Origin: Escherichia coli | Lineage (GTDB): Bacteria; Pseudomonadota; Gammaproteobacteria; Enterobacterales; Enterobacteriaceae | Assembly (NCBI RefSeq): GCF_011045215.1 | Contig: NZ_CP049201.1 | Reading direction: 5' to 3' (one strand) | DNA length: 64,000 nucleotides | Shown: positions 49,095 through 50,370 of the stretch, piece by piece | Layout: every line of letters begins with the position of its first letter | How positions within the stretch are numbered: position 1 is the first letter of the stretch | The notes under the pieces: model-generated | The model's input: only the letters and a program-made list of their open reading frames with translations | Database searches by the model: none | What the model was told of the DNA's origin: nothing | Position numbers and translations under genes: made by a program

Positions 49095-49586
49095 TTACCA
49101 GTCGAAAATGTCAAATCCCGGCAGCACTTCGCCAAAGGCATCCAGATGAACAATGCCAACGGCGTAGCGACGGATAAGCGTCACTACTAACCGACGGCAG
49201 GCTTTCGACAGACCGAGACGTTTGAGGCGTAAGACCGGAAATGACCAGGCACCCAGGTGGAGCAGATAACCCGACCCGGTGTAACTAATCCATTCCGACT
49301 CACCAAAGTCTTCATTCTGGTGTGAAAGAGTAAACAGCAGAGCGTTGTCTTTCTCCGTAATATGCGCGGTACTGCACTGGATGCCATTAACGCGGGCGAC
49401 GGGTGGAAGCGGATCTTCAACGACCAGCTTTCCGGGGGAGTCAGCAACGCGAAGGGAATAACCGTTATCACAGACCACATCGATCAGCGCAGCCAGTTCA
49501 ATGCCGTCAATATCCACAGCGATCCGGCCCGCATTCAGGGCCAGAACGTTGATGGCGTCGGCTTCTACCGTCAGGGATAACTTCAT
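49095..49586 (-). CDS. Hypothetical protein directly downstream of the toxin gene (possibly DUF5983/YeeW-like)
   Basis: 163-aa ORF whose start overlaps the toxin stop by 4 nt. Confidence 0.5.
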
Positions 49587-49960
49587 CGATGCCCCCCACG
49601 GTATTTACCGGTGGTGATGTCGGTCACCGTTCTGTAATCGTTGCGAGCCATCAACCCGGTGGCTTTGCGGGCGCGGAGAATATCGATACTGGTGAGACGC
49701 GGCAACTGTGTTTCTGTACTGAAACCGTGACGATCGATGCGCACCAGATCGTACTTCTCCACAATAAAATTCACGGCGTCGCACAGTGATATACCGGCGT
49801 CGATATGCTCCTGAATCACACCGTCGTTGCCAAACGGCGTGTCGTTAAGCGTCAGACCGTAGTGACGATCCAACAGGTGGCTCAGAAGCCGTTGCCAGAT
49901 CTCCACCGGTGACGGGCGTGATGTAGCCTCCTGCGTTGAGGATAGTGGTTGGGTTTGCAT
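49583..49960 (-). CDS. CbtA-family type IV toxin (YeeV/YkfI/YpjF-like)
   Basis: 125-aa ORF containing [30 protein letters not shown]...[15 protein letters not shown]...[13 protein letters not shown], matching the recalled YeeV/CbtA sequence. Confidence 0.85.
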
Positions 49961-50010
49961 AGTGGGATCTCTTTGTTGATGGGTAAAACGAGGGTAAGTA
50001 GTAAGAAGCT

Positions 50011-50370
50011 TTACGCGGTTGCCGCTGGTGTCGGATAAATCGCCAGGTATACGTAACCATGCGAGCCGAGGGAGTCGGCCTCGCAGGTCAGCCCTTTTGC
50101 ATAGAGCGTGACACAGTGCTGATGGCGGGGAGTGAGTTCACCGCTGGTGAGCATCAGTTCAAGCTGTTTGAGCAGCAGTGGAAATGCCTGGTCGAGATGC
50201 CGTAAATCCCCGTCGCTGAACTGTCCGGTGATGCTGGCCCGGTCAGCGAGATAATGCAGACAGTTGCCCGACTGCACCAGCCGTGCGCCAAAACAGGGCG
50301 TGATACTGCGTTTAAGCCCCCACCAGGGTTCAGTGATATCGTGGTTTACTGTCGGTATTTTATTCGACAA
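50011..50370 (-). CDS. CbeA-family type IV antitoxin (YeeU/YafW/YfjZ-like)
   Basis: 119-aa ORF containing WWGL...[26 protein letters not shown]...[41 protein letters not shown]; immediately upstream of the toxin. Confidence 0.85.

Follow-up and report, generated by a model that had tools for sequence, protein, structure and literature searches.

An intact CbtA/CbeA-family toxin-antitoxin pair in an aspV island of Escherichia coli and the DUF5983 gene that overlaps it

Does a gene whose start overlaps the stop codon of a toxin gene belong to the toxin-antitoxin system, or does it travel with that system as a separate gene of the same mobile element? The question is raised by a 64,000-nucleotide (nt) stretch of Escherichia coli DNA (contig NZ_CP049201.1 of assembly GCF_011045215.1; hereafter the window, meaning the whole stretch at its full length). 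Three consecutive open reading frames (ORFs) on its minus strand lie where a preliminary description had placed them: a cbeA/yeeU-type antitoxin gene, a cbtA/yeeV-type toxin gene and a yeeW-type gene encoding a DUF5983 protein. We consider it very probable that the locus holds an intact CbtA/CbeA pair within a CP4-type island at the tRNA gene aspV, and that the toxin-antitoxin mechanism does not require DUF5983, which is more likely a separate mobile-element gene. The pair itself adds little, being a textbook type IV system of which most E. coli genomes carry several copies; the residual interest lies in the role of DUF5983/YeeW, a protein under selection, tied by the overlap to one toxin subfamily and also found alone next to transfer origins (oriT). 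The purifying selection on DUF5983, its restriction to long CbtA-type toxins (14 of 44 loci) and the occurrence of its C-terminal domain (C-domain) next to oriT without cbtA are what the present analysis adds.

An intact type IV toxin-antitoxin pair

The antitoxin gene (50011..50370, minus strand) encodes 119 amino acids (aa) and matches the Pfam family CbeA_antitoxin (PF06154) over its full length (E = 5e-52, 175 bits, curated cut-off 27), and the toxin gene (49583..49960, minus strand; 125 aa, ATG start) matches CbtA_toxin (PF06755) over profile positions 1-112 of 112 (E = 3e-50, 169 bits, curated cut-off 25). With those of the DUF5983 protein described below, these profile matches all lie above the curated cut-offs and far beyond chance, and therefore confirm the likeness to YeeU/YeeV (CbeA/CbtA) proposed in the preliminary description. 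The antitoxin is 76% identical to K-12 CbeA and 66-68% identical to YafW and YfjZ, and the toxin is 68% identical to K-12 CbtA and 60% identical to YkfI and YpjF. Solved YeeU structures were matched by the antitoxin (PDB 2INW, E = 8e-57; 2H28, E = 4e-54), as were the YeeU/YfjZ structures 2JN7 and 2EA9 (both E = 3e-42); the toxin had no sequence match in PDB, even at E ≤ 1 and E ≤ 10. An in-frame TAA lies four codons before the antitoxin TTG, which is the sole start codon after that stop; AAGGAAGG precedes the TTG at a spacing of 6 nt. The toxin gene follows the CbeA/YeeU-family gene directly, with a 50-nt gap between the antitoxin stop (50011) and the toxin start (49960). Pairwise ratios of nonsynonymous to synonymous substitution rates (dN/dS) against homologous loci were low for both genes, at 0.11-0.20 for the antitoxin and 0.10-0.19 for the toxin.

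The residues with known roles in the toxin are kept. K-12 CbtA, of a system classed as type IV (PMC5371832), blocks division and elongation through direct and separable contacts with FtsZ and MreB: R15 is needed for MreB binding and F65 for FtsZ binding, and the substitutions R15C and F65S abolish the respective contact (PMC5624674). YkfI and YpjF act similarly to CbtA (PMC5624674; PMC5371832). Both R15 and F65 stand at the same positions in the window toxin. The region holds an intact type IV pair of the CbtA/CbeA (YeeV/YeeU) toxin-antitoxin family. No PADLOC anti-phage defence model matched at E ≤ 0.01 among the five proteins scanned, and a PHROGs scan returned families of unknown function only.

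By homology with K-12, the 125-aa toxin would bind FtsZ and MreB through separate surfaces and would block the Z ring and cell elongation, yielding lemon-shaped, non-dividing cells. The 119-aa antitoxin would not sequester the toxin but would counteract it at the FtsZ and MreB filaments, which it would bind and bundle. Masuda et al. reportedly found in 2012 that CbeA antagonizes the toxin in this manner, by bundling the filaments and not by binding the toxin. By analogy, the window allele would be expected to work as the K-12 proteins do.

The overlapping DUF5983 gene

The third gene (49095..49586, minus strand; 163 aa, ATG start) encodes a two-domain protein, with matches to DUF5983_N (PF25638; E = 1e-29, 102 bits) and to the DUF5983 C-domain (PF19419; E = 3e-17, 63 bits), the curated Pfam cut-off being 27 for each. 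An early guess that the gene belongs to DUF5983 was therefore right on both domains. The claim that this member was uncharacterized holds for function, and we found no paper in the literature testing what YeeW/DUF5983 does; it fails for classification, the protein belonging to a named family. It is 85-98% identical to 163-aa database entries named 'DUF5983 family protein' or 'Aec77'.

The overlap with the toxin gene, also given in the preliminary description, was read directly from the sequence (49583..49586, minus strand). The toxin gene ends ...GGG CAT CGA TGA AG..., and the DUF5983 ATG consists of the A of the CGA codon and the TG of the TGA stop, producing the 4-nt overlap ATGA. A Shine-Dalgarno-like run of G (GGGGGG) lies 6 nt upstream of this start. 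Because the DUF5983 start overlaps the toxin stop, the two genes are probably co-transcribed and translation of DUF5983 is probably coupled to that of the toxin; judging by spacing, the transcript would run from cbeA through the 67-aa ORF that follows DUF5983.

Selection has acted on the third gene as on its neighbors. Its dN/dS (pairwise against homologous loci) is 0.12-0.20, and the divergence of its protein tracks that of the neighboring toxin and antitoxin; it is therefore a genuine coding gene under purifying selection, inherited with the pair. The DUF5983 domain folds confidently and has no structural relative among solved structures, and its sequence likewise had no PDB match at E ≤ 1 or E ≤ 10. 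A fused chain of CbtA, a (GGGGS)6 linker and DUF5983, modeled with AlphaFold2 from 13 paired sequences, showed no confident complex, at a predicted local distance difference test score (pLDDT) of 46 and a predicted template modeling score (pTM) of 0.31, a quality too low to bear on contact in either direction.

The family is narrow and enterobacterial. Among 5.8 billion proteins we found 994 relatives at E ≤ 1e-3, the closest being the 163-aa 'DUF5983 family protein' or 'Aec77' entries, from Salmonella, Enterobacter, Serratia, Citrobacter, Klebsiella, Pantoea and Yersinia. At 50% clustering there were only 201 representatives, many of them fragments. Two unusual relatives were seen. In locus L010 (1582-2325) the DUF5983 protein has 247 aa, with about 84 extra aa, CPDC among them, inserted between the two domains. 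In the 2703-aa database protein P0229, 13 separate stretches match the DUF5983 query (29% identity); it is possibly a polyvalent protein or one made up of repeats of the domain.

DUF5983 C-domains in plasmid leading regions

The representative search also recovered two further architectures, which hold the C-domain (roughly 95 aa, with the motifs CSTAHIT..DN, G.GYL.RL and LK..G.SK..R and a C-terminal FDW) and not DUF5983_N: one is a stand-alone protein of about 100 aa, the other a 188-aa protein whose N-terminal part differs. Eight plasmid or plasmid-like contexts (L006, L008, L009, L017, L018, L020, L022 and L023) have the C-domain gene in last place in the leading region, beside the transfer origin, with no cbtA nearby. 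There it adjoins SLT and traM genes, or mobC/mobA and a relaxase gene, and it is preceded by psiB/psiA, hok, antirestriction, DNA methylase, DUF4942 or DUF932 genes. A further plasmid copy (L005) lies near DUF932 and RepA genes, and two records labeled as plasmids (L019 and L021) carry the entire CP4-type block, including cbeA-cbtA-DUF5983-DUF957.

Leading regions are enriched in anti-defence, toxin-antitoxin and uncharacterized genes (PMC11541004); we found no paper in the literature on stand-alone DUF5983 C-domain genes in that position, at the end of the leading region next to oriT. Because C-domain copies occur beside oriT without cbtA, DUF5983 is more likely an establishment-type gene of mobile elements than a toxin-antitoxin component, a judgment drawn from position and not from biochemistry. 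It would then be a gene of the leading-region type (establishment or anti-defence genes), passed on along with the long CbtA subfamily.

A stronger claim would be that DUF5983 is no passive neighbor at all, and is either a dedicated partner of long CbtA toxins, held in fixed ratio and modulating the toxin or sensing a trigger, or an undescribed family of conjugative establishment or anti-defence proteins whose gene lies closest to oriT. We regard this claim as somewhat unlikely. Were its second form true, the entire CP4-type block would be the relic of a leading region, with the toxin-antitoxin pair a part of that relic; and should DUF5983 prove to be either a toxin modulator or an establishment factor acting early on entry, this would help to explain why the block persists in enterobacterial islands.

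Linkage of DUF5983 to long CbtA-type toxins

A rival reading is a true three-component system, in which DUF5983/YeeW would be the functional partner of long CbtA-type toxins, kept in fixed ratio by translational coupling and acting as a second antidote, a chaperone or stabilizer, a trigger sensor or a regulator. The linkage on which such a system would rest is real. A 2023 survey in mBio reports that DUF5983, where it occurs, always lies on the downstream side of CbtA_toxin (PMC10790755), and a 2026 preprint likewise notes that DUF5983 adjoins cbtA-cbeA (bioRxiv 10.64898/2026.06.09.728211); the order in the loci examined here was also always toxin and then DUF5983. DNA resembling cbtA plus DUF5983 is present in 5031 of 5426 complete E. 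coli genomes, at a median of 3 places per genome and a maximum of 11, and in 3728 of those 5031 genomes at least 80% of both genes is covered.

Among 44 CbtA-family loci from IMG/VR (L024-L067), DUF5983 follows the toxin gene in 14, in 11 at full length and in three as stubs like that of K-12. The remaining 30 are without DUF5983, and most of these have short toxins of the YkfI/YpjF type. Toxins of the long kind (about 124-127 aa) have DUF5983 after them, usually with DUF957 as well; short ones (104-113 aa) have neither, and in several of these loci DUF4942 comes directly after the toxin gene. The ATGA overlap is found in 10 of the 11 IMG/VR loci that have an intact toxin gene and then DUF5983, and also in K-12 cbtA/yeeW, in the Pantoea-type locus L012 and in the divergent locus L014. 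In L014 the toxin is only 62% identical over the aligned part and the DUF5983 protein consists of the C-domain alone, and still the overlap is kept; this locus also has an extra 71-aa gene (5413-5628) between cbeA and cbtA. Loci L010 and L034 have a 13-nt spacer between toxin and DUF5983 genes instead of the overlap, with a GGAGG of its own for DUF5983 in L010. Linkage and overlap are conserved within the long CbtA subfamily.

This pattern, together with the co-divergence and purifying selection described above, counts in favor of a three-component system. Against it, the third gene is absent with the pair in those 30 of 44 loci; the pairs ykfI/yafW and ypjF/yfjZ, both without DUF5983 in their K-12 loci, function experimentally as two-gene systems (PMC5371832); K-12 CbtA/CbeA was itself characterized beside a truncated, 64-aa yeeW stub; and the plasmid homologues lie far from any cbtA. 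Start/stop overlaps are, moreover, common in compact operons, and in L008 an LPD29/LPD30 gene overlaps DUF5983 by 8 nt. We therefore judge a true three-component system improbable. The three-gene unit of the preliminary description survives as a linkage with conserved overlap inside the long CbtA subfamily, and probably does not extend to a shared mechanism, given the pairs without the gene, the K-12 pair beside its truncated yeeW and the plasmid homologues without cbtA.

Several points nonetheless count against our preferred view of an intact pair accompanied by a separate mobile-element gene. The toxicity, neutralization and targets of the window allele rest on 60-76% identity to tested proteins. 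The 4-nt overlap and the strict order of cbtA and then DUF5983 persist across lineages with as little as about 57-62% protein identity, which a functional partnership would explain as well. The label 'leading-region gene' describes the location of homologues and not the action of the protein, and about ten plasmid contexts were inspected by hand out of 265 plasmids with a match. Finally, promoter and terminator consensus scans gave counts not above shuffled expectation.

A 67-aa ORF downstream of DUF5983

The ORF that follows in the same direction (48860..49063, minus strand; 67 aa), 31 nt after the DUF5983 stop, is named 'DUF957 domain-containing protein' by the Prokaryotic Genome Annotation Pipeline (PGAP), and had no model in the copy of Pfam that we used. 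It is conserved (dN/dS of 0.30 against L012), and in 9 of the 11 full-length IMG/VR loci its homologue is a separate ORF 11-34 nt past the DUF5983 stop. It is probably the sequence of AntiFam entry ANF00264, which the 2026 preprint argues to be a real protein (bioRxiv 10.64898/2026.06.09.728211). The same preprint raises the idea of a programmed frameshift from DUF5983 into this ORF. Such a frameshift is not needed, as the ORF has its own ATG, preceded by a Shine-Dalgarno-like AGGA, and stands as a separate ORF in nine other loci; our data favor a separate gene. Four database proteins (P0240, P0243, P0253 and P0128) do have the N-terminal part of DUF5983 fused to a homologue of the 67-aa ORF.

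The aspV island

The pair lies within a conserved block of DUF932, antirestriction, RadC, DUF987, cbeA, cbtA, DUF5983, DUF957 and DUF4942 genes, located in a CP4-type integrative island at its tRNA-Asp (aspV) end. The genes mltD, gloB, yafS, rnhA and dnaQ precede the island, followed by tRNA-Asp (47726..47802, plus strand; called by ARAGORN and by the Rfam tRNA model at 67.7 bits), with rnhA and dnaQ as flanking genes and the insertion point after dnaQ, and the island starts right after the tRNA gene. A search for the other border looked for repeats of the tRNA-Asp 3' end elsewhere in the window and found none of at least 14 nt, and an Rfam scan of 47000-57000 found tRNA only. Upstream, tRNA-Ile and tRNA-Ala (35956-36150) and a second tRNA-Asp (39502-39578) mark a ribosomal RNA operon.

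The last island gene before the tRNA is a DUF4942 pseudogene (47935..48803, minus strand), frameshifted into ORFs of 187 and 77 aa that match PF13708 at profile positions 1-91 and 117-189; PGAP also marks it as frameshifted in the nearly identical strain G5. Between it and the 67-aa ORF lies a GC-rich, terminator-like hairpin (48806..48827, minus strand; 8 pairs, 7 of them G-C, with a weak T tail) from the consensus scan, which only hints that the transcription unit may end here, since the number of such sites in this region does not exceed shuffled expectation. The best promoter-like site (50397-50370) was rejected as chance, since it ends on the antitoxin TTG and transcription would begin inside the ORF.

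On the other side of the pair, a yeeT-type DUF987 gene (50394..50615, minus strand; PF06174, E = 4e-35) lies directly upstream of the antitoxin gene, in the same position as yeeT, ykfH and ypjJ in K-12. Next are a yeeS-type gene for a RadC-like JAB-domain protein (50636..51115, minus strand; Pfam RadC, E = 2e-44; NCBIfam TIGR00608 at 147 bits, above cut-off), whose start was taken from PGAP with coordinates mapped from L001, an antirestriction gene of the KlcA/ArdB type (51127..51597, minus strand; PF03230, E = 2.5e-38) and a DUF932 gene (51865..52683, minus strand; PF06067, E = 2e-50). Farther into the island, all on the minus strand, are a DUF905 gene (52803-53171) and a gene of the IrmA family (interleukin receptor mimic; 53113-53565), an IS110-family transposase gene (55207-56376), a gene for a CSS-motif EAL-domain protein (57243-58790) and one for a 1403-aa autotransporter with AC_1 and beta domains (59345-63556). 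The longest DUF905 ORF (122 aa, TTG start) overlaps the IrmA gene; the PGAP start gives a shorter protein of 78 aa.

That the trio is a decaying remnant, intact by chance in a cryptic island and neither expressed nor functional in the window strain, is very improbable: the frameshifted DUF4942, the IS110-family transposase, the many DUF5983 relatives in databases that are fragments or frameshifted and the lack of promoter signal above chance would suit it, but none of the three ORFs is shortened relative to its family, dN/dS is 0.1-0.2, the functional residues are conserved and the allele occurs at no less than 99% identity in about 68 genomes.

Comparison with known systems

The closest counterparts are copies of the same allele. 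Many RefSeq E. coli chromosomes match the 1.9-kb stretch around the pair at 99.7% identity, and the aspV alleles of E. coli G5 (NZ_CP060065.1) and BE2-5 (NZ_CP032986.1) differ from it at few points (99.7-99.9% DNA identity). The distal parts of the islands do differ: in place of the IS110-family transposase of the window, G5 has genes for YfjS/YafY, WYL and GTPase proteins. In those strains PGAP already names the genes 'type IV toxin-antitoxin system YeeU family antitoxin', 'TA system toxin CbtA family protein', 'DUF5983 family protein' and 'DUF957 domain-containing protein'. Our NCBIfam scan found no model for the antitoxin, toxin or DUF5983 protein, so these names must stem from other rules. 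The trio has thus been annotated automatically and its linkage published, and the module as such is already known, standard and very common.

The stand-alone C-domain genes of conjugative and mobilizable plasmids of Enterobacterales are more distant. They share the C-domain motifs and the common neighbors DUF932, DUF4942 and antirestriction with the window locus, but their proteins are only 25-45% identical, lack DUF5983_N or have another N-terminal domain (188-aa forms), and their genes lie beside oriT, traM or relaxase genes, whereas the window gene overlaps cbtA.

The order of genes in the window block is that of the cryptic elements CP4-44, CP4-6 and CP4-57 of K-12. YkfI/YafW of CP4-6 and YpjF/YfjZ of CP4-57 belong to the same families (toxins about 60%, antitoxins 66-68% identical), their elements have the same antirestriction, RadC and DUF987 genes upstream, and the CP4-6 block directly adjoins its tRNA gene as in the window. 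Their toxins, however, are shorter (109-113 aa), are not followed by a DUF5983 or DUF957 gene and carry C15, not R15 (PMC5624674). CbtA/CbeA with yeeW in CP4-44 is the nearest of the three, with the same Pfam families, a common order of yeeS-yeeT-cbeA-cbtA-yeeW, the same 4-nt ATGA overlap of cbtA and yeeW, and R15 and F65 in both toxins. It differs in sequence (only 76% identity for the antitoxin and 68% for the toxin), in island site (aspV in the window, the CP4-44 site in K-12), in antitoxin start (TTG in the window, GTG in K-12) and in the third gene, which in K-12 is a 64-aa stub of the N-terminal domain (56% identical over 45 aa) and in the window encodes 163 aa with two domains. The third gene of the window is thus K-12 yeeW in its full-length form.

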